A stretch of DNA of 64,000 bases from Candidatus Omnitrophota bacterium (GCA_041649175.1 JBAZNR010000001.1:655497-719496); one strand, 5' to 3'. Shown: positions 46,801 through 63,948, numbered from the stretch's first letter. Notes: generated by a model not told the origin, from the letters alone. Numbers and translations: made by a program.

Positions 46801-46877
<77 letters not shown>

Positions 46878-47776: not shown

Positions 47777-47869
47777 CCACCTTGTTTGTCAATGACACAC
47801 GTTGTTTGGTCAAGTAAAGTGATCCTGTAACCACAAGTTGCAGGATTTTTTTATTTTATCGAGGAGGAA

Positions 47870-48190
47870 GTGATGATCAAGCTAACAGAAATTGAGATTG
47901 TGCCAGTAAGACCCAATAAGGGGTTGGTTGCATTCGCGTCGTTTATTCTCAATGATTCGTTTTTTATCGGCGATGTGGCCATTTACACGCGCATCGATCA
48001 GCCCGGATACAGGCTGGTTTATCCGGTGAGATATTTAGTCACCGGATTAAGAGTCCATTGTTTTAAACCGATTCATAAATCGGCGGCGGATGATATTGAA
48101 AACCAAGTCAGCCGTTACTATGAAAACTTGATTGAGAAAGCGAAGAAGACGGAAGGAACACCTCATGATCGATTATCAGAAATTGATTAA
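47870..48190 (+). CDS. SpoVG-like nucleic-acid-binding protein
   Basis: 106 aa. LTEIEIVPVRPNKGLVAFASFILNDSFFIGDVAIYTRIDQPGYRLVYP parallels the SpoVG core (ITDVRI..V...G..KA.ASI.LD..FVV.DIRVI). Confidence 0.5.
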   Translation: MMIKLTEIEIVPVRPNKGLVAFASFILNDSFFIGDVAIYTRIDQPGYRLVYPVRYLVTGLRVHCFKPIHKSAADDIENQVSRYYENLIEKAKKTEGTPHDRLSEID

Positions 48191-50540
48191 GAATGTGCCC
48201 GATGAATTAAAGAAGTTGCCCAATTGGGTCGGGTGCAAGATTGTGCCCAGCAAAGACCGGCCGGGTAAGACCGATAAAATCCCCATGAATGCCTTGACCG
48301 GCGCCCACGCTAAGTCCAACGACCCCTCCACGTGGACAGATTTTGAATCCGCATTAGATTTATCCATTCAACGTAAATACGATGCCATTGGTTTTGTGTT
48401 TCGACCACCGTATGTCGGTGTTGATTGTGATGAATGCCGCAAGGATGGAAAAATTTCTGATAAGGCGCAAGGCATTTTAAAACGGATTAACTGCTATACA
48501 GAAATTTCTCCAAGCGGCACAGGCGTTCATTCGATTTGTAAAGGAGAAATTAGCCGGGCCCTCAATCAGTCAAAGAAGGGTCTGGAAATTTATACTAACG
48601 GCCGGTTTTTTACCGTCACTGGCGATCGATTAGAAGAGTACCCAGCAGTAATAGAAGATCACACAGCATTCTTAAATCAGTTAATCGAGGAATATTCACC
48701 CGCCAAGTCAAAGACAAAAAAATCGTCAAAGAAAAGTCATCGAAATACGGAAGAAGTTTTAAAAGCGATTGCCCAAAGCAAAGACGCGGATAAGTTCAGT
48801 CAGCTTTTTAACGGAGAATGGAAAGACAATTATGGATCGCAGAGCGAAGCAGATTTGGCGCTGTGCGGCAAATTGGCGTTTTGGACGGCGCGGGATCCGG
48901 CGCTCATAGATTCCATCTTCCGGCAATCGAAATTGTTTCGAGAGAAGTGGGATACAAAACACTATGCCGATGGCCGGACCTATGGCCAAGGTGTGATTGA
49001 TGAGGCGATTAGTGGTTGTGATGAAGTTTTCACCTCAGCAAGACCAAAAATTTCTCAAGGCGAGATCATCACAAAAGAATGCGAAGAGCTCATCAAAGAT
49101 TGCTTTCGCGATCAACAAGGGAGTTTCTATGTGGTGTTACCGATTAATCAGCATTTGGAAGTTTGCCAAACCAAAAGCACAAGATTCCGCAACTGGATAG
49201 CGAAAGGTTATCGCGCCAGACACAAAACCCCGCCTAATAGCGAATCCATTAATCAGGCCATTATTCAGTTGGAAGCCAAATGCGAAGACTCACGGCAAAT
49301 CGAGCTTTTTAACCGTGTGGGTCATTACGGTGGAGCGATTTATTTCGACTTAACGACTCCGGATTGGCGGGGTGTACGCATTACGCCAAGCGGATGGGAG
49401 ATCATTTATCTGCCGCCTATTTTCCGTCGTTATAGTCATCAAAATGAACAAGTCATGCCGGTATTAGGCGGCGATCCGAAAGACATCCTCCGGTTTTGTA
49501 ATCTCAACGAGGATGACCAATGTCTTTTTATCGTGACTACGGCCACCTATTTTATTCCCAACATTCCTCATGTGATCATCAGCCAAAACGGTGAACAGGG
49601 GAGTGGAAAATCCTACAACAGCCGCGCGATCAAAAGGCTGGTTGATCCTTCCAAAGTTGAATTAATCTCTTCGCCCAAGGACCTCGAACAAGCACAAATG
49701 ACTGCGGACAAACATTGGGTGAGCGCGTTCGACAATCTTTCCAAAATTATCGAGTGGTTCAGCGATTTTCTCTGCCGAGGTGTCACCGGCGAAGGCGACA
49801 TGAAACGCAGCCTTTATACCAATGATGATGAATTTATCCGGTCCTATCGCCGCTGTTTCGTCATCAATGGCATCGGTAGTTTGATGTGGCGGCCGGATTT
49901 ACTGGATCGTTCCATCCTCTTCGATATTCCGATTTTAAAAGATGGTCGCTCCGAGGAGCAGATTAACGAGGAATGGAGAAATGCTCTGCCGGGTATTTTA
50001 GGGGGTTTCTTCACCGCTATCTCAAAAGCCATGAATCATGTGAACAGTGTCACTGGTCATGAAAAATTCCGGATGGCCGACTATGTGCGCTGGGGCATGA
50101 CGCTTGCGGATGAACTTGGATTTTCTCGTCAGGAATTCTTAAATAATTATAAGGAATCGGTTGACCATAAATGGGAAAACACGGCTGAGGAGAGTTCGTT
50201 AGTTAAGAGGTTGATGACTTTAGTCATGACCAATAACGGCGAGTGGTCAGGATCAACAGCAGAGTTGTTGGAGAGGATCACCCCGGAGGGAATAAAGGAC
50301 AAAACCCTTCCTAGCACGGCCCGCTGGTTATCGAGCGAGTTGATGCGCATTGCCCCGGTTATGCGTAGCACAGGGATTGATATTATTCGTTTACCTAAAC
50401 GGGAGCCCGGGACAGGGCGGCGCCTTTTTGTTTTGCGTAAAATTGACAAAAAAGTCTGTGAGATGGGCTGTGAGCAGGGTGTGAGTAGCAATGATCAAAA
50501 CGAGTCAGCTCACAGCCTTTTTGATAAAAGACCGTTTTAA
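48165..50540 (+). CDS. bifunctional primase-polymerase (prim-pol) / PriCT-2 / D5-like helicase replication protein
   Basis: N-terminal prim-pol region (YVGVDCDEC). PriCT_2-like SQSEADLALCGKLAFWTARDPALIDSIFRQSKLFREKWD. Downstream Walker A NGEQGSGKSY. The track ORF starts at 48132; the ATG at 48165 is used here. Confidence 0.8.
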   Translation: MIDYQKLIKNVPDELKKLPNWVGCKIVPSKDRPGKTDKIPMNALTGAHAKSNDPSTWTDFESALDLSIQRKYDAIGFVFRPPYVGVDCDECRKDGKISDKAQGILKRINCYTEISPSGTGVHSICKGEISRALNQSKKGLEIYTNGRFFTVTGDRLEEYPAVIEDHTAFLNQLIEEYSPAKSKTKKSSKKSHRNTEEVLKAIAQSKDADKFSQLFNGEWKDNYGSQSEADLALCGKLAFWTARDPALIDSIFRQSKLFREKWDTKHYADGRTYGQGVIDEAISGCDEVFTSARPKISQGEIITKECEELIKDCFRDQQGSFYVVLPINQHLEVCQTKSTRFRNWIAKGYRARHKTPPNSESINQAIIQLEAKCEDSRQIELFNRVGHYGGAIYFDLTTPDWRGVRITPSGWEIIYLPPIFRRYSHQNEQVMPVLGGDPKDILRFCNLNEDDQCLFIVTTATYFIPNIPHVIISQNGEQGSGKSYNSRAIKRLVDPSKVELISSPKDLEQAQMTADKHWVSAFDNLSKIIEWFSDFLCRGVTGEGDMKRSLYTNDDEFIRSYRRCFVINGIGSLMWRPDLLDRSILFDIPILKDGRSEEQINEEWRNALPGILGGFFTAISKAMNHVNSVTGHEKFRMADYVRWGMTLADELGFSRQEFLNNYKESVDHKWENTAEESSLVKRLMTLVMTNNGEWSGSTAELLERITPEGIKDKTLPSTARWLSSELMRIAPVMRSTGIDIIRLPKREPGTGRRLFVLRKIDKKVCEMGCEQGVSSNDQNESAHSLFDKRPF

Positions 50541-50690
50541 AGTGTGAGTACAAAAATCTGCTCACGCTCAACTCACAGCATTGTTCACAGGGTTAAATGT
50601 TTAAAACACAACTGGTTAAATGAAAGTGTGAGCTGTGTGAGGCTAATTTTCTTTAGGAATAAAAAATAAGAGAAAAGAGGCTCACACGAC
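50456..50690. repeat. iteron-like repeat field (about 10 copies of YTGTGAG / CTCACAG) flanking an AT-rich stretch; candidate origin of replication
   Basis: Copies read at 50456, 50468, 50479, 50508(rc), 50542, 50559(rc), 50571(rc), 50626, 50634 and 50679(rc). 10-bp inverted repeat GGCTGTGAGC...GCTCACAGCC at 50467/50507. Confidence 0.5.
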
Positions 50691-50988
50691 GGGCAAAAAG
50701 GAGCGGAAGGGCGGGGTGTAAGGATGGGATTCTTAGCTTCACAACGTTCACAAATAAAATGGGTCCTTCCAGGGGGGTGTGGGGATGAGGGTCGGGCGAG
50801 GCGCATGTTGTCAGTGATACAAAATTTTAAAAAAGTGATGTCATGTCCATGAAATTGGCAAAATCGTTGTTGATGGTTGTTGTTCGTCGCTGTTGGTGCT
50901 TATTGTTTCATATTGTTGATGACGGATTCGGACATTGAGTGACATCAAAAATGTCCGAATGTCCTATTCAAAGAAAGGAGATGTCGCA

Positions 50989-51171
50989 ATGCAGACAGAT
51001 GAGTTGATCACGGTACAAGACTTGGCCAAGCGGTTAAACGTTCCGGTCAGCTGGATTTACCAGCGGACAAGGCGCGGACAGCACAGCATTCCGCATATCA
51101 AGCTGGGCAAATATGTGCGCTTTAACTGGCTTCAGGTTGTTCAATTTTTGCAGGAAAATAACCAGCGTTAA
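50989..51171 (+). CDS. AlpA-type excisionase/transcriptional regulator (HTH)
   Basis: 60 aa. LITVQDLAKRLNVPVSWIYQRTRRG...IPHIKLGKYVRFNWLQV matches the Phage_AlpA/Xis HTH pattern. AGGAGA RBS 8 nt upstream of this ATG; the track ORF starts earlier at 50935. Confidence 0.7.
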   Translation: MQTDELITVQDLAKRLNVPVSWIYQRTRRGQHSIPHIKLGKYVRFNWLQVVQFLQENNQR

Positions 51172-51260
51172 AGTCGACGAATGCCTTGAAAAGGGCGCAA
51201 CTTATGGCACAATACGCCCCCTATTGGATGTGGTTTAATGTTGGTTAAGGATGTTCAACT

Positions 51261-52451
51261 ATGGCTCAAGGTAGTATTGTAAAACGATGTAAGGTTTGCC
51301 GACGGGAAGGCAGGAATCAATTTGAGGCCTGCGCTCACGCTGAGCGGGTCTATGCCATTTCTTACCGCGTTGGCAGTAAATCGATTTTTAAAACCGTCGG
51401 TCCCAACAAAAAAGAAGCCGAAGCGGTCCTTGCCAAGACGCTTTCTGAGGTCAATAACGGAACGTTCTATCAAGCAGAGGAAATTTCGCTAAACGACTTT
51501 GTCGACAAATGGCTCGATGAATACGCCGCGCCCCGGATCAAAGCCAATACGCTTTACAAATATAAAAATGCCCTTCAAACGCACGTGCGTCCAGCTTTGG
51601 GCCATCACTATCTTTCCAAAATAAATCAGAACGATATCCGGGCGCTTATGTCGAAGCTGATTAAAATAAAATCAGCCAAGACGTGTAACAACCTTTTGAC
51701 GATGTTAAAGACGATCTTTAAATACGCCCGCCGTTGGGGCTATATTCGGATCAGTCCGACCGAGGATGTTGATAAATATCGTGTTGAACGGGAAGAAATG
51801 GATTTCTTGCGTCCGGAGGAGATAACGTTGTTACTCAAGCATTGCCGCGAACCGTTTAAAACATTTGTGTTAACCGCCGTCTTGACCGGCATGCGTAAGG
51901 CTGAGCTTTTAGGATTGCAGTGGGGTGACATCGATTGGAACAGTAGCACGATCTTTGTCAAAAGAAGTTTGAAATATCGGTATGAAAGTAAAATTAACGG
52001 CGAGAAGAGTTGGTATTTCGACACGCCTAAAACGAAATATTCTGTTCGGCCAATATCGATGTCACCGCGGCTCAAGGAAGCTTTGGAGATTCACCGTATT
52101 ACCGCACCCATCAATGAATCTGATTTAATTTTCGTAAATAGCGCAGGCAGTCCGTTAGATCCGGATAATACGATCAAAAGAGAATTTCAACCCGCACTTC
52201 GAATGGCCGGTCTACGCATCGTTCGCTTCCACGACTTACGTCACACCTACACATCCCTTCTCATCGCCCAAGGGGAGAACATCAAATTCATCCAATCCCA
52301 ACTCGGCCATGCCTCAATCCAAACCACCATGGATCGTTACGGTCATATCCTGCCGAATACCAACAAAGGAGTTGGGGAACGGTTGGATCGATTGGTGTTT
52401 GGAGAGGTTCCCCAGGCACCCATATCCCAAACATCTTCGGTCATTGAATAA
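51261..52451 (+). CDS. int: tyrosine-type site-specific integrase
   Basis: 396 aa. C-terminal catalytic residues in HDLRHTYTSLL...LGH...TMDRYGHI (R, H-x-x-R, Y). Phage-integrase N-terminal arm-binding region. Confidence 0.9.
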   Translation: MAQGSIVKRCKVCRREGRNQFEACAHAERVYAISYRVGSKSIFKTVGPNKKEAEAVLAKTLSEVNNGTFYQAEEISLNDFVDKWLDEYAAPRIKANTLYKYKNALQTHVRPALGHHYLSKINQNDIRALMSKLIKIKSAKTCNNLLTMLKTIFKYARRWGYIRISPTEDVDKYRVEREEMDFLRPEEITLLLKHCREPFKTFVLTAVLTGMRKAELLGLQWGDIDWNSSTIFVKRSLKYRYESKINGEKSWYFDTPKTKYSVRPISMSPRLKEALEIHRITAPINESDLIFVNSAGSPLDPDNTIKREFQPALRMAGLRIVRFHDLRHTYTSLLIAQGENIKFIQSQLGHASIQTTMDRYGHILPNTNKGVGERLDRLVFGEVPQAPISQTSSVIE

Positions 52452-52504
52452 ATACAATGTTCTATATTATGGAACAGTTGTCTTATTTTTTGGGACGGAC
52501 AACT

Positions 52505-52545
52505 CGATTGACCAACGGGCCATTTTGTGCTATAAGGTGCTATAC
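52505..52545 (+). promoter_or_regulatory. promoter with tandem GTGCTATA operator-like direct repeat upstream of the HTH gene
   Basis: TTGACC, a 17-nt spacer, then TATAAG. GTGCTATAAG GTGCTATACT direct repeat overlapping the -10. Confidence 0.4.
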
Positions 52546-52586
52546 TCCTAATCGTGAAAAAATAAACATTTCAAGGAGTTCTATCT

Positions 52587-52772
52587 ATGGAAATTGTTAA
52601 GAAATTAGAGTTGTATCGTTTAGAAAACAAAATCACCCAAGAGGAACTAGCAGAGGAGCTGGGTGTGGCCTTTTCCACCGTCAACCGCTGGTTTAACAGC
52701 AGGACAGTTCCCAGTCAGATCCAGCAGTATCATATTGAAAAATATTTGAATAAAAAGGTTCGAAGAAAATAA
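52587..52772 (+). CDS. XRE-family helix-turn-helix transcriptional regulator
   Basis: 61 aa. ITQEELAEELGVAFSTVNRWFN: classic Cro/C1-type HTH. Confidence 0.75.
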   Translation: MEIVKKLELYRLENKITQEELAEELGVAFSTVNRWFNSRTVPSQIQQYHIEKYLNKKVRRK

Positions 52773-52926
52773 AAGTATTGCAGGTTTTTATTTATAGGAT
52801 AGCCAGAGTCACAGCTAGAGTGACAGCCAGAGTCCAGTACCAGTTCAGTACTAGAGCAGTACTAGTGTAAAAATTGATCAGCACCGACCCAGTTGGGACT
52901 AAGTCCCGTGAAGAAGTGAAGAAAAC

Positions 52927-53631
52927 GTGATGATAGAAAAGAGAAAATCAAAAGGTATTGTAAGTTGGCCGGAAGACGACAGGCCCAGAGAGAAGTTGCT
53001 TAAAAAGGGCGCGGGCGCTTTGAGCAATTCAGAACTTTTGGCCATTTTGTTGCGTACCGGAACAAACGGTACCAGCGCCATTGATCTTGCTCGGAATGTG
53101 TTGAAGAAATTTGGTACGTTTCGGGAGATGGCGCACACGGACACCCGAGACTGGAAAGAATTCAAAGGTTTAGGCGGCGCTAAGATTGCCCACATTCAGG
53201 CCGCGCTTGAGATCGGGAGGCGCTATCAACAGGATGTTGTGTCCACCGGGAAGCAGAAGATCGCTTCCGCCAAAGACGTTGTTGCTTTAGTCCTGCCCCA
53301 CATGCGCGACCTTAAGACCGAGGTCTTTAAGGTCGTCTATCTCGATAATAATAATCGAATCATTGATATTTCCGATGCCGCGATAGGAACGGTAGACCAT
53401 GCCTTTCCCATCATCCGCGAAATAATCCATTCTGCTTTACAAAAATTCGCCAAGTCGATTGTTTGTGTGCATAACCATCCAAGCGGTGAAACTGCGCCAA
53501 GCATGCAGGATAAGAAATTTACCAAAGATTTATGCGATGCCGCGCGCCTCATGGAAATCAAGGTGCTGGATCATGTCATTATCGCTGGTGATAAACATTT
53601 TAGTTTTGCTGATGAAGGGCTTATATGCTGA
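52927..53631 (+). CDS. radC: RadC-like JAB-domain protein
   Basis: RPREKLLKKGAGALSNSELLAILLRTG N-terminal HhH-like segment. JAMM motif HNHPSG-E. 7-nt overlap with the downstream SNF2 gene. Confidence 0.85.
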   Translation: MMIEKRKSKGIVSWPEDDRPREKLLKKGAGALSNSELLAILLRTGTNGTSAIDLARNVLKKFGTFREMAHTDTRDWKEFKGLGGAKIAHIQAALEIGRRYQQDVVSTGKQKIASAKDVVALVLPHMRDLKTEVFKVVYLDNNNRIIDISDAAIGTVDHAFPIIREIIHSALQKFAKSIVCVHNHPSGETAPSMQDKKFTKDLCDAARLMEIKVLDHVIIAGDKHFSFADEGLIC

Positions 53632-56507
53632 CAGATTATCACGCCAAATATTTTGCATATGAGCTCACTAAACGATGCGCTTCAGACAGTTTAGAGAAAT
53701 TATCCGCAACCCTTTCTAATGCCCAAGTTGATTTAAATCCCCATCAAATTGAAGCCGCGCTTTTTGCTTTTCGATCACCGCTTTCCAAAGGCGCGATTCT
53801 CGCCGATGAAGTTGGTCTTGGTAAAACAATTGAGGCAGGCATTGTTATTTCCCAGAAGTGGGCGGAGCGGCAGAGAAAAATTCTTATTATTGTTCCAGCG
53901 AATTTAAGAAAACAATGGAACGAAGAGTTGTTAGATAAATTTTTCATACCTTCGATTATTCTCGAGAAAAAATCATTTAACGAAGAAATAAAAAAAGGAA
54001 ATCTGAATCCTTTGAATCAGAAGGATTTAGTTGTTATTTGTTCTTACCATTTTGCCAGATCCAAAGACGTTTATATCAAACAAGCTGGTTTTGATTTAGT
54101 AATTATTGATGAAGCTCATCGCCTACGGAATGTTTACAAAGAGTCAAATAAGATTGCCAATGCGATTAAGAACTCATTAAAAGATTTCCCCAAAATACTT
54201 TTAACAGCTACTCCGCTTCAAAATTCACTTATTGAACTTTACGGACTAGTCAGTGTTGTTGACGAACAAGTTTTTGGTGATTTGGAAAGCTTTAAAGCTC
54301 AATACTGCCACAGTGATCCCCCAAATTATGCGGAATTAAAAGAACGGATTAAACCTGTTTGTCTCCGAACACTAAGAAGGCAGGTTTTGGAATATATCAA
54401 ATATACCAACCGCATGGCGATCACTCAGGAGTTTTATCCCCGCCAAGAAGAGCAAGACCTCTACAACTTGGTCACTGAATACCTTCAACGGGATAGGCTT
54501 TATGCACTTCCAAAAGCTCAAAGGCACTTGATGACGCTGATTTTAAGAAAACTTTTAGCATCGTCCACATATGCCATTGCTGGAACATTGCTGGGGTTAG
54601 CTCGTAAACTGGAATTTTTACTTAAAAATCAAGACAAGCCGGAAGTGGTTGAAGATGTTTTATCTCAAGATTATGAGGCGTATGAGGAAACAAAGGATGA
54701 GTGGATTGATGATGAAGAAGGCGACGGGGAGGAAAAAGATGAGCCGCCGCAAACAAAATTAACTGCGGAAGATGTTGAGAATATAAATGAGGAAATTGAT
54801 TTATTGAAGCAAATGCATGAATTGGCAAAGTCTATCGTTAAGAACTCCAAAGGAGAGGTTTTGTTGACTGCCCTTCAGAAAGGATTTGAGGAAGCTCAAA
54901 AAAAGGGCGCATTGAAGAAAGCGATTATCTTTACTGAATCCACTCGTACGCAGAGTTATATTCTTGAAATTTTAAATCAAACGGAATACGCAAACAGAAT
55001 TGTACTTTTTAATGGAAATAACAATAGTCCACAGGCTAGAGAGATTCTTAAAAAGTGGGTTGAGAAAAATAAAGACACAGATCGAATCACAGATTCTTCG
55101 ACGGCCAATATGAGAGCAGCGTTGGTTGATTTTTTCCGCAATGAAGCCGTGATTATGATTGCAACCGAAGCCGCGGCTGAGGGCATTAATCTTCAGTTTT
55201 GTTCTTTGATTGTTAATTATGATCTCCCTTGGAATCCGCAACGCATTGAACAACGTATAGGTCGGTGTCATCGTTATGGTCAAAAACATGATGTGGTGGT
55301 TGTTAATTTTTTGAATAAAAAGAATGCTGCGGATGTCAGGGTCTATGAATTGCTTGAGAAGAAGTTTCAGCTTTTTAGCGGGGTGTTTGGGGCTAGTGAT
55401 GAAATCTTGGGAGCATTGGAATCTGGGGTGGATTTTGAGCGCCGCATCGCACAAATTTATCAAAATTGCCGTACTGAGGAGCAGATTCAAATCTCATTCG
55501 ACCAGCTACAAAAAGATTTAGAAGAAAACATCTCAGAGAAAATCACCCAAACAAAACAGCGCCTTCTGGAAAGTTTTGACGAAGAAGTGGCCGAGAAATT
55601 GAAAATGAATTCTATTCAGAGTAAAGAATATTTGGGCAAGTATGAGGCTTGGTTGTGGGACTTAACGCGGTATTTTCTTGAGCCCTATGCCCGATTTGAT
55701 CAGGGGGATCACTCCTTCACTTTAGTTAAAAACCCATTTCCTACAGAAAGCATTGACCCCGGTCCTTACAGGATTGGAAAACATATTGATGATGCGCATA
55801 TTTATAGAGTAGGACACCCGTTAGCCCAAAAAGTCATTAGCCAGTTTAAGAGTAAAAATCTATCAACGGTGGAAGTGCAGTTTGACTACGAGAAATCCGG
55901 AAAGAAAATTTCAATATTGGAAGGCTTGGTTAACCGGACGGGGTGGCTTTCCGTCTATAACTTCACTATTCAGTCTTTTGAAGAAGAAGATCATGTTGTT
56001 TTATGCGGTTTAACTGAGGATGGTCAAGAGCTTAACGCGGATCAATGCCGAAGGCTTTTTTCACTTCCCGGAAGCGTTATGAATGAGACGGTGCTGGCAG
56101 AAAATACAAAAATTAGAATCAAGGAGATCATTGGCAAACGGCAGGCCATGATTTTAGATGCCAATATGCAGCGTAATTCCGGCTTCTTCGATAAAGAAAT
56201 CGATAAGTTAGACAAGTGGGCTGAAGACAAGCGCAATTCGCTGAAATTATCTTTAAAAGACTTAGACGATGAGATTAAAGAACTCAAAAAGACGGCAAAA
56301 CAGGCCCAGAGCCTGCCTGATAAATTAGCCGCACAGAAAAAGGTTAAGGCGCTGGAGAAGAAGCGTGACGAAGCTTGGCGAGAATACGATGTCACTGGCC
56401 GCAAAGTTGAAGAGGACAAAGATAATCTTATTGAATCAATTGAAAAAAAGCTTACTGCCAAAGAAACGTTGGCAGAAGTTTTTACCATACGCTGGAAAGT
56501 TGTTTGA
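53625..56507 (+). CDS. SNF2-family helicase with uncharacterised about 400-aa coiled-coil C-terminal extension
   Basis: Motif I ILADEVGLGKTIEAG. Motif II VIIDEAHRLRN. Motif III LLLTATPLQNSLIELYGL. Motif VI QRIGRCHRYGQ. C-terminal 560-960 has no recognisable domain but a K/E-rich coiled coil. Confidence 0.85.
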   Translation: MLTDYHAKYFAYELTKRCASDSLEKLSATLSNAQVDLNPHQIEAALFAFRSPLSKGAILADEVGLGKTIEAGIVISQKWAERQRKILIIVPANLRKQWNEELLDKFFIPSIILEKKSFNEEIKKGNLNPLNQKDLVVICSYHFARSKDVYIKQAGFDLVIIDEAHRLRNVYKESNKIANAIKNSLKDFPKILLTATPLQNSLIELYGLVSVVDEQVFGDLESFKAQYCHSDPPNYAELKERIKPVCLRTLRRQVLEYIKYTNRMAITQEFYPRQEEQDLYNLVTEYLQRDRLYALPKAQRHLMTLILRKLLASSTYAIAGTLLGLARKLEFLLKNQDKPEVVEDVLSQDYEAYEETKDEWIDDEEGDGEEKDEPPQTKLTAEDVENINEEIDLLKQMHELAKSIVKNSKGEVLLTALQKGFEEAQKKGALKKAIIFTESTRTQSYILEILNQTEYANRIVLFNGNNNSPQAREILKKWVEKNKDTDRITDSSTANMRAALVDFFRNEAVIMIATEAAAEGINLQFCSLIVNYDLPWNPQRIEQRIGRCHRYGQKHDVVVVNFLNKKNAADVRVYELLEKKFQLFSGVFGASDEILGALESGVDFERRIAQIYQNCRTEEQIQISFDQLQKDLEENISEKITQTKQRLLESFDEEVAEKLKMNSIQSKEYLGKYEAWLWDLTRYFLEPYARFDQGDHSFTLVKNPFPTESIDPGPYRIGKHIDDAHIYRVGHPLAQKVISQFKSKNLSTVEVQFDYEKSGKKISILEGLVNRTGWLSVYNFTIQSFEEEDHVVLCGLTEDGQELNADQCRRLFSLPGSVMNETVLAENTKIRIKEIIGKRQAMILDANMQRNSGFFDKEIDKLDKWAEDKRNSLKLSLKDLDDEIKELKKTAKQAQSLPDKLAAQKKVKALEKKRDEAWREYDVTGRKVEEDKDNLIESIEKKLTAKETLAEVFTIRWKVV

Positions 56508-56525
56508 TTTTAATTAAAGGAGACC

Positions 56526-58529
56526 ATGATGGGTGAACCAAAGAAAATGGATTTACGCTCGATGGATATGACCGAAGAGCATAAAGCAAAATTGAAGCAG
56601 ATTTTTCCGCATGTGTTTAATGAGGACAAGATTGATTTTGAACGCCTTAAGCAAACGCTAGGTGAAGATATTGACGCTGGATTGGAACGTTTCGGCTTAA
56701 CCTGGCCGGGGAAAGCCGAATGCATGAAGATCATTCAACAGCCAAGCATTGGTACCTTAAAACCCTGTAAGGAAGAATCCGTAAACTTTGACACAACTGA
56801 GAATCTTTTTATTGAGGGTGATAATCTGGAAGTTTTGAAGCTTTTGCAAAAGTCATATTATGGTAAGGTCAAAATGATCTACATCGACCCACCTTATAAC
56901 ACGGGTAGGGAATTTATTTATCCTGATAAATATTCTGAGACCTTGGAAACCTATTTGGCTTATACCGGTCAGGTTGATGAAGAAGGGAAAAAATTTTCGA
57001 CAAATACAGAGGCCGATGGGCGGTTTCATTCAAAATGGATAAATATGATGTATCCACGTCTCTTCCTTGCGAGAAATTTATTGAAAGACGATGGGGTGAT
57101 TTTTATTAGTATTGATGATAATGAAGCAAATAATTTGAGAAAAATATGCGATGAGATTTTTGGAGAAGAGAATTTTCGTGGAGAAATAATAAGGGCGACG
57201 GGTACAACAACCGGGCAAGACGGGAGAAAAATCGGGAGTTCTTATGATCTCTGTTTATGCTATTCCAAAAGTCAAGCTTATAAGCTTATAGGGTTGCCTT
57301 TGGTCGGTAAAGATTTGAATAGATTTAACAATGATGACAATAATGGTAAGGGGAAGTACGCATTATTGCAATTAAGGAAGACTGGCAATGCTGACAGAAA
57401 AGAGGATAGGGAGAAGATGTTTTATCCGATAGTAGCACCGGATGGCACCAAGGTGTTCCCTGTTGGCCCATCTGATTATTTGAGTCGCTGGAGAGTGGGG
57501 CCTAAAACTTACGACGAATTCTTAAAAAACGATCTTGTTGTATGGAAGAAATCCAGCGATGAAGAAAATGATGAAGATGATGAGCTTGATGATCAAATAG
57601 AAGATGTTGAGCAAGAAGAATCGATCGAGGCGACAGAGAACATTGATATATCTGGATATAAATCTGATTGGAGGCCTTATGTAAAATATTATCTGTCAGG
57701 AAGAACAAAACAAGTGTCTAATTTGTGGACAGATATCGACGGGAATAAAAAGGGTAGTTTAGAATTAAAAGAAATATTCAGTAAGAAGAAAGTTTTTGAT
57801 AACCCAAAGCCGACGGATTTTATCAGTAGACTAATCCGAATTAGTTGTGAAAAATCTGATATTGCGCTCGATTTCTTTGCGGGGAGTAGTACTACCGCCC
57901 ATGCGATACTTGAACTGAACAAACAAGACAACGGTAACCGTAAATTTATCCTCATTCAGCTTCCCGAATCTTGCACGGAAAAGAGTGAAGCTTTTAAAGC
58001 CGGATATAAAACTATTGCCGATATTGGTAAAGAGCGTATTCGTCGAGTTATTAAAAAAATTCAAGATGAAACCAAGGATGAATTAGATTTTCAGAATAAT
58101 AAAATGGACTTGGGTTTTAAGGTCTTTAAGCTTGATCAATCCAATTTCAAGATTTGGGACGGCGCAGTTGAGCAAACTTCGGATGGAAAAAAGATTGAGA
58201 AACAGCTAATGTTGCAAATTGAGCATATTAATCCAAAGGCTACTGAAGACGATGTTTTGTATGAATTGTTACTTAAATCCGGGTTCCCACTAACGACGAA
58301 AGTTGGATCTTTACAATTAGCTGGTAAGAAAGTTTATTCGATTGAGGGTGGTGCGTTATTGGTTTGTTTGGATAAAGCATTAACCAAGGAAGTCATAACA
58401 GAAATGGCCCGCAAAGAGCCAGCCCGCGTTATTTGCCTTGATGCTGGCTTTAGTGGGAACGATCAATTGAAAACAAATGCGGTTCAAATTATGAAGTCGC
58501 ATAAAGTGGAAGATTTTAGGACAGTTTAA
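56526..58529 (+). CDS. mod: Type III restriction-modification Mod subunit (N6-adenine DNA methyltransferase, beta class)
   Basis: Motif IV IYIDPPYNTG precedes motif I ALDFFAGSSTTAHA (permuted order typical of Type III Mod). Mod-like N-terminus LKQIFPHVFNEDKIDFERLKQ. AGGAG RBS. Confidence 0.85.
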   Translation: MMGEPKKMDLRSMDMTEEHKAKLKQIFPHVFNEDKIDFERLKQTLGEDIDAGLERFGLTWPGKAECMKIIQQPSIGTLKPCKEESVNFDTTENLFIEGDNLEVLKLLQKSYYGKVKMIYIDPPYNTGREFIYPDKYSETLETYLAYTGQVDEEGKKFSTNTEADGRFHSKWINMMYPRLFLARNLLKDDGVIFISIDDNEANNLRKICDEIFGEENFRGEIIRATGTTTGQDGRKIGSSYDLCLCYSKSQAYKLIGLPLVGKDLNRFNNDDNNGKGKYALLQLRKTGNADRKEDREKMFYPIVAPDGTKVFPVGPSDYLSRWRVGPKTYDEFLKNDLVVWKKSSDEENDEDDELDDQIEDVEQEESIEATENIDISGYKSDWRPYVKYYLSGRTKQVSNLWTDIDGNKKGSLELKEIFSKKKVFDNPKPTDFISRLIRISCEKSDIALDFFAGSSTTAHAILELNKQDNGNRKFILIQLPESCTEKSEAFKAGYKTIADIGKERIRRVIKKIQDETKDELDFQNNKMDLGFKVFKLDQSNFKIWDGAVEQTSDGKKIEKQLMLQIEHINPKATEDDVLYELLLKSGFPLTTKVGSLQLAGKKVYSIEGGALLVCLDKALTKEVITEMARKEPARVICLDAGFSGNDQLKTNAVQIMKSHKVEDFRTV

Positions 58530-58531
58530 AA

Positions 58532-61432
58532 ATGAAATTCAAATTTGATGCCAATCAGCAATATCAGTTAGACGCTGTAACCGCGGTGGTTGAGCTCTTT
58601 AAAGGGCAGCGTGAAAACCGTGGAGCTTACGAGATCAGCTTTCGCAAAGATACCCAATTTATGGGTCAATCGATGACGCAAACAACTCTTGGCTTGGGGA
58701 ACAATTTGGATATTGATGACAATATTCTGCAAGATAACCTCGTTTTAACTCAAAAAAATAACAGCATTTTTCAAGAAACCTCTGTTCATTCTCGAGGGCG
58801 TAATTTTTCTGTAGAAATGGAAACAGGAACGGGCAAGACTTACGTTTATTTAAGAACGCTTTTTGAGTTGAACAAGGTTTATGGTTTTAAGAAATTTATT
58901 ATCGTTGTGCCGTCGGTGGCGATTCGAGAGGGAGTTGTAACATCAATTAAGCAAATGGAAACTCATTTCAAGGAATTATATAACAATGTGTCATTTGACA
59001 GATTTCTTTACGATTCCAAAGATGTGGCCAAGCTTCGCGGATTTGCTACGAGCAATGAAATGCAGCTGATGATTATCAACATCGATTCATTTAACAAAAA
59101 ATCTATCAACATCATTTATGACTATCGCGACCAGATGAGCGGCTATAAGCCGATTGAATTTGTGCAGGCAACGAATCCGATTGTTGTGATGGATGAGCCG
59201 CAGAATATGGAAAGCGATAAGGCTAAGGAAGCCATTGCCTCTTTGAATCCGTTATGTACTTTGCGTTATTCAGCGACCCACAGAGATAAGTACAATTTGA
59301 TTTATCAACTCGATCCGATTAAAGCCTTTCAAATGAGATTGGTTAAAAAGATTTCGGTTAATTCAGTAACAGCGGAGAGTGACCCCACGCAGACGTACGT
59401 GAAGGTGGAGGAAATCAAGAATCAAAGCGGTACGTTTAAGGTAAAACTTTCTTATTTTGAACAGACCAAAGAAGGTGTTCAAAAGAAAAATAAACAATTC
59501 AAACAGCACGACGATCTTTTTGTTGTTTCCAAAGAATATGAGCCGTACCGCAATGGGTTTGTCATTGATGAGATTAACGCGCGGCCGGGAATGGAATTTG
59601 TGCGCTTTGCCAATGGTATTCGTTTAGGTCTTGGAGAAGAACAGGGCGGCAATCGAGATGATGTTGTAAAGAAACAAATCAAGGAGACGATTAAAACCCA
59701 TTTTGAAAAGGAATATCAAGTCAGGGATACGGGTATTAAGGTTTTGTCTTTATTCTTTTTGGATCGGGTTGAGAATTATCGTGTTCATAAAAAGGATGGA
59801 TACGAACTTGGAAAATATGCTCAATGGTTTGAAGAAATTTATACCAAGTTGGCACAAGAATATCGGACGTTGTTTAAGCAGGACGTTGTAGCCGCCGATA
59901 AAGTTCACAACGGTTATTTTGCCAAGGATAAGAAGGGTGATTACAAGAACACTTCGGGTGACACAAAGGACGACGAAGATACTTATTCGTTGATCATGCA
60001 GGATAAGGAAAAGCTTTTGGATTTATCTAATCCGCTTAAATTTATATTCTCGCATTCGGCACTTCGGGAAGGCTGGGATAACCCCAATGTGTTTCAGATC
60101 TGTAATTTAAGGGAGATGGGGACCGTTACCGAACGCAGGCAAACAATAGGACGAGGACTGCGGCTGCCGGTTTCTGCGTTAACCGGTGAAAGAGTCCGTG
60201 ATGAATATGTGAACAATTTGGTTGTTATCTGTACAGAATCGTTCAAGGACTTTGTGGAAGGCTTACAGAAAGAATTGGAGGATGATTGCGGCGTTGTCTT
60301 TGGACGGTTGCCCATTGAGGCTTTTGTTGGGATTGATTTTCAGCAGTATGGCCTCGATAAGATTGATAAGGCATCTTCTGAGGAGATTTGGCGCCATCTT
60401 AAAAAGGATAAAGTGATCGCGGATGATGGATTAATTTTGTCAACTTTTAGAGAAAAGGTAGATGCGCACATTTTTTCAGTCCCGGAGAAATACAAAGAAG
60501 TCACGAATGATATTATTCGGGCAATTGAGCGGCATCAAATGGATAAACATATTGAGGATCATAATAAAAGAGTAAAGGTGAAGGTTAATGAAGAAGTTCT
60601 TTTAGATCCTGAATTTGAGAAGTTTTGGCGGGCGATCAATACAAAAACAATTTATTCCGTAAAATACTCGACCGATGAGCTTATTGAAAAAGTTGTGCAG
60701 GCAATCTCCAAAATGCCGCGTATTGAGCCGCTGAAATTAAGATCGATATTAGTTGGGCTTGATATTGCTCAAAGCGGGATAAAAGCTGTGATGGAGAAAA
60801 CTCCGGATATTGAGTACGCCAGCAGGGGAGTTTATTTGCCAGATATTTTATCCTATGTGCAAAGTAAGGTTGAACTAACGCGCAGTACAATTTTTCAAAT
60901 ATTAAAGAAGTCCGGCCGTTTAGATGAGTTTACTATCAATCCTCAGCAATTCATGGATTGTGTTGTTAAAGAAATCCGGGATGTTCTTCATCGAATGATC
61001 ATTGAAGGGATTCAGTATGAAAAACTAGATGAAATATCTTATGAGATGTCTTTATTCCGGGTTGACGAACACAAGATGATGTTTGCGCAGGACAAAATTG
61101 TCCCTACGCGCAAATCTGTTTATGACTATATTTTATGGGAATCTGGAGTTGAAAAACGATTTGCTGAAGGGTTAGAGGGTTTAAAGAACATCAAATATTT
61201 TATTAAATTGCCCGGGTGGTTTAAGATTGAAACCCCTATTGGCACTTATAATCCAGATTGGGCCATTCTTAAGGAAAACGGAAAAATTGTTTATATGATT
61301 CGAGAGACAAAGGCGACGAAGGAACAACTGAAATTGCGTCTCCCTGAAGTCGATAAAATTGAATGCGGCCGCCAGCACTTTCTTGCAATCGGGGTGGACT
61401 ACGCTGTGGCGACGAGTGTGGAAGAATTATGA
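58532..61432 (+). CDS. res: Type III restriction enzyme Res subunit (helicase-nuclease)
   Basis: Motif I METGTGKTYV. Motif II variant VVMDEPQN. Helicase C region. C-terminal PD-(D/E)xK candidate NPDWAIL...IVYMIRETKAT. Starts 2 nt after the mod stop. Confidence 0.8.
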   Translation: MKFKFDANQQYQLDAVTAVVELFKGQRENRGAYEISFRKDTQFMGQSMTQTTLGLGNNLDIDDNILQDNLVLTQKNNSIFQETSVHSRGRNFSVEMETGTGKTYVYLRTLFELNKVYGFKKFIIVVPSVAIREGVVTSIKQMETHFKELYNNVSFDRFLYDSKDVAKLRGFATSNEMQLMIINIDSFNKKSINIIYDYRDQMSGYKPIEFVQATNPIVVMDEPQNMESDKAKEAIASLNPLCTLRYSATHRDKYNLIYQLDPIKAFQMRLVKKISVNSVTAESDPTQTYVKVEEIKNQSGTFKVKLSYFEQTKEGVQKKNKQFKQHDDLFVVSKEYEPYRNGFVIDEINARPGMEFVRFANGIRLGLGEEQGGNRDDVVKKQIKETIKTHFEKEYQVRDTGIKVLSLFFLDRVENYRVHKKDGYELGKYAQWFEEIYTKLAQEYRTLFKQDVVAADKVHNGYFAKDKKGDYKNTSGDTKDDEDTYSLIMQDKEKLLDLSNPLKFIFSHSALREGWDNPNVFQICNLREMGTVTERRQTIGRGLRLPVSALTGERVRDEYVNNLVVICTESFKDFVEGLQKELEDDCGVVFGRLPIEAFVGIDFQQYGLDKIDKASSEEIWRHLKKDKVIADDGLILSTFREKVDAHIFSVPEKYKEVTNDIIRAIERHQMDKHIEDHNKRVKVKVNEEVLLDPEFEKFWRAINTKTIYSVKYSTDELIEKVVQAISKMPRIEPLKLRSILVGLDIAQSGIKAVMEKTPDIEYASRGVYLPDILSYVQSKVELTRSTIFQILKKSGRLDEFTINPQQFMDCVVKEIRDVLHRMIIEGIQYEKLDEISYEMSLFRVDEHKMMFAQDKIVPTRKSVYDYILWESGVEKRFAEGLEGLKNIKYFIKLPGWFKIETPIGTYNPDWAILKENGKIVYMIRETKATKEQLKLRLPEVDKIECGRQHFLAIGVDYAVATSVEEL

Positions 61433-61491: not shown

Positions 61492-62169
61492 ATGAGCGAT
61501 AAATATAAGGAATTATTTGATTTATCTTTGAGAATTTTGGAGGAAGAACAGCAACGAACGAATAGGCTTGATGAAAAAGCTTCCAAATATTTTAGCGTCC
61601 TATCTTTTTTGATTGGCATTTACGGTGTTTTTTGTTCACGGATTATTAGCGATTGCATTCCATTCAAAGGTTGGATGGATATCAGTTTAATAAGTTTGGG
61701 GTTTCTTAATCTTGCAGGATTAATTGTCTCTTGGTTCTTATGTTTTGCTGTCTTCAGACAACACGTTATTGTTAAGATTCCCTTGAACGATGAAATGATC
61801 AAGTTCTTTAATGACAATGAAGTGGTTGATATTCACTACACATTGTCAAAGGCCAATAAAGATGCGCTTGTGGAGAATCGGCTTATTACCGACAAGAAAT
61901 CTTATCTATTAGTGTGGACGTATAAAATACTTTCATGGGTATTTGTTTTAATGGTCGTTATGATGTTTGTTTTTGGGCTTAAAATATGGGCTACAAAAAA
62001 TCACTATAAGAGTGGAGGTGTTGTAATGACTGAGGGAAATAAACCTAAAGAGGAACCCAAGGAAGATCTTAAGCCGCCGATGTATGACCGTATTACAGAA
62101 GGTTATGATCCATCGAAGACAAGAAAGATCGAAAAAGGGGTTGTCGAAAAAGATAAGGAAAAGAAGTAG
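61492..62169 (+). CDS. membrane protein, unknown function (coiled-coil N-terminus, 3 TM, K/E-rich tail)
   Basis: 225 aa. Hydrophobic segments SVLSFLIGIYGVFC, ISLISLGFLNLAGLIVSWFLCFAVF and LLVWTYKILSWVFVLMVVMMFVFGL. Confidence 0.5.
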   Translation: MSDKYKELFDLSLRILEEEQQRTNRLDEKASKYFSVLSFLIGIYGVFCSRIISDCIPFKGWMDISLISLGFLNLAGLIVSWFLCFAVFRQHVIVKIPLNDEMIKFFNDNEVVDIHYTLSKANKDALVENRLITDKKSYLLVWTYKILSWVFVLMVVMMFVFGLKIWATKNHYKSGGVVMTEGNKPKEEPKEDLKPPMYDRITEGYDPSKTRKIEKGVVEKDKEKK

Positions 62170-62192
62170 AGGGCTATTCTCTCCAGAGAAAT

Positions 62193-62363
62193 ATGCCGGA
62201 TGACTTATTCGATGAGTTCATGGAATATGATTTCACGATGGGTGCGGACGTCGTGAAATGCCCGCATTGCGGGGCCGATGTGCTGTGCAGTTTGTTTTTC
62301 GATAACGAAGTCGAATGCCCGGAGTGTGGGAAGAAGTTTCGAAAGGAGGGGAAAGATTCATGA
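62193..62363 (+). CDS. 56-aa zinc-ribbon protein (CPHC-x17-CPEC)
   Basis: MPDDLFDEFMEYDFTMGADVVKCPHCGADVLCSLFFDNEVECPECGKKFRKEGKDS. Below the ORF-track cutoff. Its stop overlaps the next gene's ATG (ATGA). Confidence 0.45.
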   Translation: MPDDLFDEFMEYDFTMGADVVKCPHCGADVLCSLFFDNEVECPECGKKFRKEGKDS

Positions 62364-62845
62364 AAGATCTACTCGACAAGCTATCAACCTATAACCTGTT
62401 TAACTACCTTTTTCCCGGTGTTGTTTTTGTTGTTCTGGGCGAAGCGATAACTGATTACTCTTTTGCTCAGCAGGATGTTGTTTTAGGGTTCTTTTTGTAC
62501 TATTTCATTGGACTTGTGGTCAGCAGGGTTGGATCTCTTGTTGTCGAGCCACTGCTGAAATGGATATCATTTCTTAAATTTGTGGATTATAAAGATTATG
62601 TCGCCGCCACTAAGAAAGATGAAAGAGTCGAGCTTTTATCAGAAGTGAATAATACGTATCGTACATTATGTGCATGTTTTGGTTTGCTTGCTCTGCTTAA
62701 AGTGGTCGAAGTTTTGGGAAGGAAGTTTTCAATCCCTCAAGGATGGGAGCTTTTTATCCTCGTGTTTGCTTTGCTGGTTATTTTCTTGTTTTCGTACAAG
62801 AAGCAATCCGCCTATGTTAAGAAACGAGTAGAGGCTAACAAATAG
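62360..62845 (+). CDS. 4-TM membrane protein, unknown function
   Basis: 161 aa. The track ORF starts at 62315; the internal ATG at 62360 gives translational coupling to the zinc-ribbon ORF. Four hydrophobic helices. Confidence 0.5.
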   Translation: MKDLLDKLSTYNLFNYLFPGVVFVVLGEAITDYSFAQQDVVLGFFLYYFIGLVVSRVGSLVVEPLLKWISFLKFVDYKDYVAATKKDERVELLSEVNNTYRTLCACFGLLALLKVVEVLGRKFSIPQGWELFILVFALLVIFLFSYKKQSAYVKKRVEANK

Positions 62846-62865
62846 GATCAAATAGCGAGGTTATT

Positions 62866-63948
62866 ATGGCAAATAAAGCGAAATTCACTTTTTTCAATGT
62901 CGGTCAGGGCGATGCAACCTTGTTGGAGTTGCCATCGGGACAATATATGCTCATTGACAACAAGGGAGGAGGAAAAGTTGATGTACGAAAGTATTTAAAG
63001 ACTATTCTCCCCAAAAAGGACGATAAATATTTTTTGAATTATTTTATGCTAACGCATGCCCATGTGGATCATGTGGGGTCTGTTAATGAATTGTTTGATG
63101 ATTTTGAAATAGGGGAAATTTGGTATACAGGGTTTGAATTTAAGAAGAAGGAAGAAAAAGATTTGCCCGAGCAGTATAAGCAGTTTTTAAAGAAAATTAA
63201 GGAGCGCGAGAAAAAGTATTCGGATAAGGATATCGCCGTAGAGAATGATTTGATTAATTTGCAGATAGGTGATGTCAAATTTGAATTCATGGCGCCTCCA
63301 ACGCGTGAGGTATGGGATAAGCTTAAAGAGTCAAAAGAAATTAAATCTTATTTGCAGAGGTTAGAAGAAAGTGTTGAAGAGAGTGCCAAAAAATCACTAT
63401 CTGATCTTATTCATGTGGGTTCAATTATTTGTCGAATAACCTACATGAATTCAAGTGTTTTGATTACGGGGGACGGGGAGTTATTGACGTGGAAGTATTG
63501 GATTATGCCGAAGTTTTCGCGCAGTTGCTTTTCGAAATTGCTCCATGCGTCCCATCATGGTTCAAAAGGATTTTTTATCTCTCAGTTTGATTGTGCTAAA
63601 GATGAAACTTTTGATGAAAATACCGATGGGTGCTATACCGATGGCTTGCTGTCAATCTCCCCATCAATTGTTGTTGTGACAAATAAGACTAAACCCGGAG
63701 ATAAAGATCACGAGAGCCCGCCCAATGAATATGCATTGAAACTTTATGCATCGTTCAAGAATGTGAACAGAACTCTTAAGTTTACGAGTGACGGTTCTAT
63801 CCAATATGTTATTCCGGATGAGCAGATTAGTGCATTAAATATTGATTCTGATAAAAGGTTTGCGGTGGACTCTTCGTCGGAAAAAGCTTCTACAACTTTT
63901 GAGAAACCGAGAAGCCCGGCCGTACTATTCCCCAATCGATTCGGATAG
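62866..63948 (+). CDS. standalone ComEC-type metallo-beta-lactamase-fold hydrolase (putative nuclease) with about 150-aa C-terminal extension
   Basis: FTFFNVGQGDATLLELP (ComEC-MBL signature) and HAHVDHVGS (HxHxDH). Further His/Asp motifs (LHASHHGSK). No TM segments. Confidence 0.7.
   Translation: MANKAKFTFFNVGQGDATLLELPSGQYMLIDNKGGGKVDVRKYLKTILPKKDDKYFLNYFMLTHAHVDHVGSVNELFDDFEIGEIWYTGFEFKKKEEKDLPEQYKQFLKKIKEREKKYSDKDIAVENDLINLQIGDVKFEFMAPPTREVWDKLKESKEIKSYLQRLEESVEESAKKSLSDLIHVGSIICRITYMNSSVLITGDGELLTWKYWIMPKFSRSCFSKLLHASHHGSKGFFISQFDCAKDETFDENTDGCYTDGLLSISPSIVVVTNKTKPGDKDHESPPNEYALKLYASFKNVNRTLKFTSDGSIQYVIPDEQISALNIDSDKRFAVDSSSEKASTTFEKPRSPAVLFPNRFG

Follow-up and report, generated by a model that had tools for sequence, protein, structure and literature searches.

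An SNF2-family helicase gene and a radC gene as probable separable accessory layers of a Type III restriction-modification locus in a Candidatus Omnitrophota genome

Introduction

Restriction-modification (R-M) of Type III is, in the textbook picture, a two-gene system. Its enzymes hemimethylate an asymmetric site, and their ATP-dependent cleavage needs two inversely oriented unmodified sites. Here, we analysed a stretch of 64,000 nucleotides (the window) from a Candidatus Omnitrophota metagenome-assembled genome (GCA_041649175.1, JBAZNR010000001.1:655497-719496), in which a Type III mod-res pair is preceded by a gene encoding an SNF2-family ATPase and, before it, by radC. All coordinates of the locus are given as window positions.

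SNF2 helicases are already known from other defence systems. An SNF2 gene paired with a methyltransferase gene is common to class 1 DISARM and ARMADA, and both proteins of the pair are described as BREX-like (10.1101/2025.09.15.676423; PMC13463889). In class 1 DISARM, a joint deletion of drmD and drmMI left almost no protection against one of the phages, and future work on the role of DrmD has been called for in that literature (10.1101/2021.12.28.474362). SNF2 defence proteins encoded by a single gene also exist, such as HmaA (PMC11232893). We found no description in the literature of Type III Mod and Res genes with a linked SNF2 gene, with the reservation that subscription journals are mostly outside the coverage of the search and that an earlier mention is possible; a 2025 review of R-M biology never mentions SNF2, and a literature search by the accessions of plasmid-encoded proteins returned nothing.

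A previous reading of the window, made from the sequence alone, had described the four genes as one operon in which a Type III system is combined with a front end like that of class 1 DISARM. Its observation of the locus, the Type III pair and the linkage of SNF2 to this pair withstood the present analysis, whereas the hybrid with DISARM and the role given to RadC as a component of the SNF2 system did not. The locus is probably a Type III R-M system with two separable accessory layers, SNF2 and RadC, which is carried as cargo beside an element at a tRNA-Met gene.

Results

Every sequence-level criterion of Type III R-M is found at this locus, in Mod, in Res and in the order of their genes, and judged in this way the two proteins are a bona fide Type III pair. 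Mod is a beta-class N6-adenine methyltransferase (N6_N4_Mtase, PF01555) that matches the PADLOC MTase_III model over its full length with 701 bits. The permuted order of its motifs agrees with the sequence-only reading, the DPPY at residue 121 preceding motif I at 449 (D-F-F-A-G-S-S), but motif I reads FAGSS and not the strict FxGxG that had been given, and homologues vary at this place (GSG, GSA, GSS, GSC). The central target-recognition region of Mod is variable and differs in two related loci (L088 and L180), the ends being 70-82% identical. Res is a superfamily 2 (SF2) ATPase (ResIII) with a C-terminal PD-(D/E)xK endonuclease domain (RE_endonuc, PF19778, aa 861-961); its motifs TGTGKT99, DEPQ221, QTIGRGLR537 and PD917...E933-T-K935 are all present, and PADLOC REase_III is matched over the full length with 954 bits. 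These profile matches and intact motifs confirm the canonical Type III signatures claimed for both proteins. Moreover, inspection of Res revealed no CxxC pair, i.e. no DUF1998-type cysteines, as had been stated. The mod gene lies directly upstream of res, an order that is kept in relatives.

The SNF2 gene is linked to such pairs far beyond this genome. A scan of one genome per species detected at least 590 relatives of the SNF2 protein, and the best 80 loci, from many phyla and 53-65% identical across the whole 960 aa, were analysed. When these were searched by tblastn with the proteins of the window, nearly all loci with room for them proved to have mod and res downstream and on the strand of SNF2; where at least 9 kb of downstream sequence was available, the order SNF2-mod-res on the same strand was present in about 46 of 48 genome loci. 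Clustering of the open reading frames (ORFs) recovered both mod and res in 41/48 of these, most of the rest being fragmented copies, and the only large clusters among the neighbouring ORFs were SNF2, Mod and two Res clades, the others corresponding to variable cargo. SNF2 stands at the head of the operon and rarely at its tail (mod-res-SNF2, three loci), and it was never seen between mod and res. A collection of plasmids contained 45 full-length matches, some of them on a Rhizobium plasmid and on IncF plasmids from Salmonella, Klebsiella and E. coli, with a small helix-turn-helix (HTH) gene, an 'SNF2-related protein' gene, optional cargo, a methyltransferase gene and a DEAD/DEAH helicase gene in this order. 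The methyltransferases and helicases of the plasmids match other PADLOC Type III models (03636/03648 and 03646/03654) and add three PADLOC Type III subfamilies to that of the window, so that the association holds in several of them, overall in at least four subfamilies of Mod/Res. The SNF2 family was almost never found without Type III genes. The linkage of SNF2 to Mod and Res that had been proposed from a single locus is thus a conserved trio across phyla and plasmids.

In the plasmids and in some genome loci, the small HTH gene (MerR/excisionase-like or XRE) overlaps the start of SNF2 (L081:6232-6432, L082:8763-9008, L083:8811-9038, L019 and L026), an overlap that resembles the arrangement of R-M controller proteins. 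The HTH gene upstream of radC in the window (52587-52772) was considered as a counterpart of these genes and rejected, since it has no similarity to them and belongs to the integrase backbone described below.

The SNF2 gene directly abuts mod in 15 of 53 loci, and the remainder carry one to four unrelated genes inside the operon, at the SNF2/mod or at the mod/res junction. The genes found there encode AlbA_2/HATPase_c_4, RhuM, OLD-family, AAA_15/21 ATPase, HTH-Peptidase_M78, DUF2130, YhcG/DUF1016, DUF3800, reverse transcriptase, DUF262, Abi and IS256 proteins. Both junctions are insertion hotspots for varied accessory defence genes. Examples of such cargo among loci L001-L083 are L003:15045-16442, L050:6395-7435, L054:8709-10688 and L044:8039-9073.

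The Type III genes, for their part, also occur without SNF2. The closest relatives of the Mod-Res pair of the window (L088-L090) have a Res that is 94% identical and carry an AlbA_2 gene upstream in place of SNF2, and their nucleotide homology to the window begins exactly at the start codon of mod. The absence of SNF2 from orthologous Type III loci, one half of what the sequence-only reading had named as speaking against its proposal, is therefore a fact in these three loci. Given its absence beside a Res 94% identical, a Type III locus can exist without SNF2, which falls short of making SNF2 unrelated to that locus. A survey of Type III loci for adjacent SNF2 genes, as had been suggested, was made with the 80 closest metagenomic relatives of Res (38-63% identity), 41 of which had enough flanking sequence to judge. 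Eighteen of the 41 carry this SNF2 family, upstream in 15 and downstream of res in 3, but the other 23 do not: 14 have a different upstream helicase (an HKD+Snf2 protein, followed by a DUF4391 gene) and 9 have no helicase within reach. Across these comparisons SNF2 behaves as a facultative and not a promiscuous component, an optional add-on to the Type III locus. Among the loci of this Res clade with another helicase, L128:4044-8103 encodes an SNF2-like protein of 1079 aa (PADLOC 'C3a139 HKD+Snf2'), then a DUF4391 protein and then Type III mod-res, and 13 other metagenome loci (L118-L160) contain similar weak, motor-only matches upstream of mod.

The SNF2 protein consists of a motor (SNF2-rel_dom and Helicase_C) and a C-terminal module particular to its family. 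The motor is intact in its motifs GLGKT64 (Walker A), DEAH162 and QRIGRCHR543 (motif VI), and its best profiles, matched over aa 29-677, are DrmD models: NF038318 (DrmD_b) with 701 bits and PADLOC PDLC02619 with 707 bits. The comparison with DrmD and BrxH profiles, which had been proposed as a check, gives DrmD as the best match, with BrxH profiles reaching only 178-222 bits; the resemblance to drmD is nevertheless partial, as 701 bits lie under the curated cutoff of 950, the match covers only positions 22-656 of the 868 of the profile, and the C-terminal third of the protein is left unmatched. The second DrmD model, NF038317, gave 251 bits (cutoff 610), the HmaA profile 175 bits on the motor only, and the DrmA profile a weak match to the motor alone (125 bits).

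The tail of this protein had been described as an uncharacterised coiled coil of 400 aa. A coiled coil was indeed modelled, but the tail has about 380 aa and only its last 283 aa are without a family match, since residues 600-677 scanned alone still match DrmD_b. Residues 678-960 alone had no NCBIfam or PADLOC match, and the full-length scan placed no Pfam domain there. In the AlphaFold2 models, an alpha/beta globular domain sits at the tip of a long antiparallel coiled coil (pLDDT 82.7 when aa 580-960 are modelled and 94.3 when the globular domain is modelled by itself), the globular domain comprising approximately aa 689-821, the return helices of the coiled coil approximately 826-943 and a final strand 946-959. 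Foldseek searches of the PDB returned nothing at E <= 0.001 for either model, the long one giving coiled-coil noise (best E = 0.03) and the globular domain alone a best E of 0.85, and a sequence-profile search of the PDB with the module returned nothing below E = 0.49. Domain and fold searches detected no recognisable effector domain, such as a nuclease, in the SNF2 protein. An exhaustive search with residues 678-960 yielded 1,529 clusters at 50% identity, in which the module is always C-terminal and the host proteins, when complete, have about 950-1000 aa. On plasmids a sharp gap was observed: full-length matches reach down to 38.6% identity and those below it are motor-only, and the plasmid genes annotated drmD by NCBI share about 25% identity with the SNF2 protein, in the motor alone. 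By these comparisons, the SNF2 protein represents a discrete, widespread and apparently undescribed family that is related to DrmD but is not DrmD.

The C-terminal module may also bear on the partner of the motor. Nearest neighbours by this module agree in their Res clade in 98% of cases; for the motor the figure is 85%, and by chance it would be 51%. This tracking fits a docking role. It also bears on the possibility that SNF2 is an independent hitchhiker, a stand-alone defence gene or other gene lodged in R-M operons without any tie to Mod and Res. The exchange of SNF2 for AlbA_2 at exact gene boundaries, the other cargo genes found between SNF2 and mod in 38 of 53 loci and the existence of single-gene SNF2 defence proteins such as HmaA (PMC11232893) would all suit a hitchhiker. 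We nevertheless hold this explanation to be improbable, given the near-exclusive linkage to Type III mod-res across phyla and four Mod/Res subfamilies, the constant place at the operon head, the tracking of the Res clade by the C-terminal module and the lack of a recognisable effector domain.

It might also be that SNF2 serves Mod and not the nuclease, either by aiding the finding or modification of host sites or by balancing methylation against restriction to limit self-cutting. Most loci have SNF2 next to the mod end of the operon, its pairing with a methyltransferase parallels DrmD-DrmMI, ArmA-ArmB and BrxHII-PglX (10.1101/2025.09.15.676423; PMC13463889), and the loss of protection after deletion of drmD and drmMI (10.1101/2021.12.28.474362) points in the same direction. 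However, Mod belongs here to the PF01555 Type III kind and not to the PglX or DrmMI type, and SNF2 follows res in three loci; the co-variation described above was measured against the Res clade only. Type III Mod enzymes such as EcoP1I and EcoP15I methylate without helpers, which also counts against a partnership of this sort, and we regard it as rather doubtful.

The function of the RadC family has been disputed for decades. RadC is predicted to be a nucleic-acid-processing JAB enzyme (PMC5512222). The protein of the window is full-length, with an N-terminal UPF0758_N domain (PF20582, HhH-like) and a JAB/JAMM domain (PF04002), matches NCBIfam NF000642 with 235 bits (cutoff 180) and contains the metal-site motif H-x-H-x7-S-x2-D in VHNHPSGETAPSMQD (HNHPSG...PS..D). 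It belongs to a clade whose members are 76-91% identical, with more than 100 clusters at 90% identity, and which occurs in metagenome-assembled genomes named Omnitrophota, Firestonebacteria and Vogelbacteria; a scan of viral contigs gave one close match, which was incomplete. Eight distinct contexts of this clade, picked by the length of assembled sequence alone, were sampled, and RadC directly precedes an R-M operon in all eight, at -7 to +41 nt from its first gene. Six of these operons are Type I systems of differing gene orders (L084-87, L171, L172, L173, L181-183 and L184-185), and two are the SNF2-Type III module, in the window and in L180. The last codons of radC are conserved (GAT/GAC GAA GGG) and supply a Shine-Dalgarno-like GAAGGG for the next gene. 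Nucleotide homology among the loci of this clade is limited to radC itself, and L084, which shares the integrase backbone of the window (integrase 96% identical), continues with RadC and a Type I system. Conversely, 68 genome loci offer at least 1 kb of sequence upstream of SNF2, and not one of them has a same-strand radC there. Since RadC is missing there (0/68) and precedes R-M operons in 8/8 contexts, it is better seen as a generic R-M leader than as a partner of SNF2; in this gene pool, its neighbourhoods link it to R-M operons generally and not to SNF2 in particular.

Two other origins of the arrangement were considered and rejected. Vertical inheritance of radC as a core gene that is followed by a defence hotspot does not suit a RadC that is 78-91% identical in metagenome-assembled genomes labelled as different candidate phyla, between flanks that are both unrelated. 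That radC is the last gene of the integrase-element backbone is not compatible with L171-L173 and L180-L185, which carry the same RadC without this backbone.

These observations on RadC also bear on the proposal that all four genes form one composite, in which a Type III system is fused to a class-1-DISARM-like front end and RadC acts with SNF2. The genes are tightly packed and the best profiles of the SNF2 protein are DrmD models. The whole block 52974-61432 is conserved in L180 at 81% nucleotide identity between flanks that are both unrelated, so the four genes have moved together into an unrelated context in this second genome, as expected from the earlier view of them as one block. In a second, distant lineage (L152/L161), radC also stands directly upstream of SNF2, with a RadC just 35% identical. 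However, core DISARM genes were not found: the nine genes lying within 48-64 kb gave no match to DrmB or DrmC, no drmA gene was found, the DrmA profile reaching only the SNF2 motor, and no DrmMI (PF13659, PglX-like) appeared among the best 25 PADLOC matches, the methyltransferase here being the PF01555 Mod. Since DrmA, DrmB, DrmC and DrmMI are all lacking, the locus is not DISARM. The hybrid with DISARM proposed for it is further disfavoured by the DrmD_b score below cutoff with an unmatched C-terminal third, and by the plasmid drmD genes, which share the motor only. Likewise, a role of RadC as a component of the SNF2 system is disfavoured by the 0/68 genome loci, by the six different Type I operons headed by the same clade and by a break in base composition between radC and SNF2: the GC content at third codon positions is 0.52 in radC and 0.38 in SNF2, and 0.37-0.42 in the three genes after radC. 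A single composite of the four genes is thus quite improbable.

All four genes are co-directional, with catalytic motifs intact in RadC, SNF2, Mod and Res (Table 1). Their coordinates, order and junctions are those of the sequence-only reading: radC shares 7 nt (ATATGCTGA) with SNF2, mod follows SNF2 after 18 nt that include AGGAG, and 2 nt separate mod from res. Its list of four ORFs was correct, but left unmentioned the XRE-type HTH gene upstream of radC. The ATG at 52930 is the more likely start of RadC, because the product from this codon is the sequence on record (MFA5059528.1). The NCBI product names are RadC, 'SNF2-related protein', 'site-specific DNA-methyltransferase' and 'DEAD/DEAH box helicase family protein'. 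In a promoter and terminator scan of 52.4-62.4 kb, promoter-like sites were rarer than in shuffled sequence and there was no convincing intergenic terminator. Between the HTH gene and radC lies a spacer of 154 nt to which nothing in the related element L084 corresponds, an AlbA_2 gene occupying that place. Within this spacer, at 52798-52863, the short direct repeat GAYAGCCAGAGTC occurs twice, 24 nt apart, with AGTYCAGTAC in tandem; these repeats may be operator sites.

Table 1. Features of the window around the Type III locus
Feature	Position	Strand	Remarks
tRNA-Met	46801-46877	+	Left boundary or attachment site of the element; ARAGORN
Element backbone, overall	47084-52772	+	Pfam, NCBIfam
orf230	within 47084-52772	+	Part of the backbone
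NrS-1-type primase-polymerase	48132-50540	+	
Excisionase-like HTH	50935-51171	+	
Tyrosine integrase	51261-52451	+	
XRE-type HTH gene	52587-52772	+	61 aa; upstream of radC
radC ORF	52927-53631	+	ORF call; likelier start ATG 52930
SNF2-family ATPase gene	53625-56507	+	960 aa
SNF2 motor region, DrmD_b-like	53706-55655	+	aa 28-677; NF038318, PADLOC PDLC02619
Family-specific C-terminal module	55656-56504	+	aa 678-960, last 283 aa
mod (Type III)	56526-58529	+	
res (Type III)	58532-61432	+	
orf225	within 61492-63948	+	225 aa, no family match; downstream of res
PDC-M48A-like gene	62315-62845	+	
MBL-fold protein gene	62866-63948	+	Weak matches to PDC-M48B, 6A-MBL, LmuA

The R-M locus is cargo beside a small element integrated at tRNA-Met. 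The backbone is shared with L084, where the integrase, the excisionase and the XRE HTH are 96%, 95% and 82% identical, respectively. The homology starts inside the 3' half of the tRNA-Met, at 46829, and L084:1-5708 opens with that half only. The protein collection includes 38 members of this integrase that are at least 90% identical. No second copy of the tRNA-Met 3' end is present within 46.7-64 kb, so the right attachment site probably lies beyond the end of the window. On the other side, the genes at 61492-63948 are not conserved beside the block in L180, where homology stops at 61432; they look like further candidate defence cargo outside the Type III system.

Discussion

Taken together, our results support the notion that this is probably a Type III R-M locus to which SNF2 and RadC have been added as two distinct layers. 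By homology and motifs, Mod would methylate one strand of a short asymmetric site, and Res would use ATP to communicate between unmodified sites and to cut foreign DNA. The association of the SNF2 layer with this pair is observed across genomes and plasmids; as for its mechanism, the motor appears to share ancestry with DrmD-type helicases and might act as a double-stranded DNA translocase or remodeller, docked onto the Mod/Res complex by the C-terminal coiled-coil arm and its globular domain. It could broaden or strengthen restriction by clearing DNA-bound proteins or anti-restriction factors, or by feeding sites to the enzyme. Read from the proteins and their neighbourhoods, the proposal that SNF2 is an accessory double-stranded DNA translocase, recruited to Mod/Res by its C-terminal module to broaden or strengthen restriction, seems to us evenly balanced between right and wrong. 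The RadC layer belongs to a highly conserved clade that moves horizontally and supplies R-M operons, whatever their type, with a translationally coupled first gene. The more ambitious version, in which SNF2 is a third class of Type III subunit that docks a DrmD-related translocase and RadC is a dedicated R-M leader gene, is proposed tentatively, as a possibility on the lesser side of even.

Several observations weigh against this interpretation. Gains and losses of SNF2 fall exactly on gene boundaries, like those of promiscuous cargo genes, and the co-variation of its C-terminal module with the Res clade could simply come from joint inheritance of a single operon. No fold relative of the globular domain is recognisable, and an adaptor role for it is a guess. 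Co-transcription of the four genes is deduced from their spacing only, because the promoter and terminator scans gave nothing usable. Finally, given the conserved block in L180 and the gene order in L152/L161, RadC and SNF2 may after all be related.

With a dedicated SNF2 partner, present in many phyla and also on conjugative IncF plasmids from Klebsiella, Salmonella and E. coli, Type III systems would gain a component; current defence-finding tools label it no further than as 'RM type III' with an orphan DrmD-like gene beside it. The SNF2-Type III module is new as a variant of Type III R-M, which is itself known. If the proposal is true, it would describe a 'remodeller-assisted' restriction enzyme with a wider reach than plain Type III. 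Since the motor shares ancestry with DrmD, BrxHII and ArmA, the three-gene system would then be the simplest setting in which to study these helicases, a minimal model for the SNF2 proteins that recur beside methyltransferases in DISARM, BREX-3 and ARMADA. The linkage of RadC to R-M operons is an additional unexplained finding and a separate, testable lead. If this clade is a dedicated leader, it might act in the establishment of R-M, in the control of self-damage or in cassette exchange, and R-M leadership would be the first defined biological context of RadC.

Among described systems, the locus is closest to the classical Type III enzymes EcoP1I, EcoP15I and StyLTI, with which it shares the order mod then res, a DPPY-containing Mod and a Res that combines an SF2 ATPase with a PD-(D/E)xK domain. 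Unlike them, it has a dedicated SNF2 ATPase gene upstream, and its relatives hold variable cargo within the operon; its Res is also distant from the enterobacterial prototype (NCBIfam PRK15483, 333 bits for a cutoff of 564). The position of RadC on a mobile element beside defence cargo recalls the RadC/ArdB 'moron' modules (10.1101/2025.09.15.676423), but RadC is here full-length with a UPF0758 domain and is translationally coupled to the first R-M gene, and neither ArdB nor toxin-antitoxin genes were noted beside radC in the window. Like the accessory genes embedded in other R-M systems (PrrC in EcoprrI; RhuM, YhcG and AlbA_2), SNF2 is facultative and swapped at gene boundaries (PMC12707154); unlike them, it is specific to Type III, fixed at the operon head and co-varies with the Res clade. 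HmaA is an SNF2 helicase fused to a NOV_C nuclease domain, which the SNF2 protein described here does not have. Compared with class 1 DISARM, the partners of SNF2 are a Type III Mod and Res and not DrmMI and DrmABC. In contrast to ARMADA (ArmA-ArmB) and BREX type 3 (BrxHII-PglX), Mod is of Type III and not PglX-like, and Res is neither a YprA-type ArmC nor PglZ; indeed, profile searches detected no PglX-like methyltransferase, YprA-type helicase-nuclease, PglZ or BrxC in the locus. What this locus has in common with class 1 DISARM, ARMADA and BREX type 3 is the theme of adjoining genes for an SNF2/RapA-like helicase, a methyltransferase and a helicase-nuclease effector.

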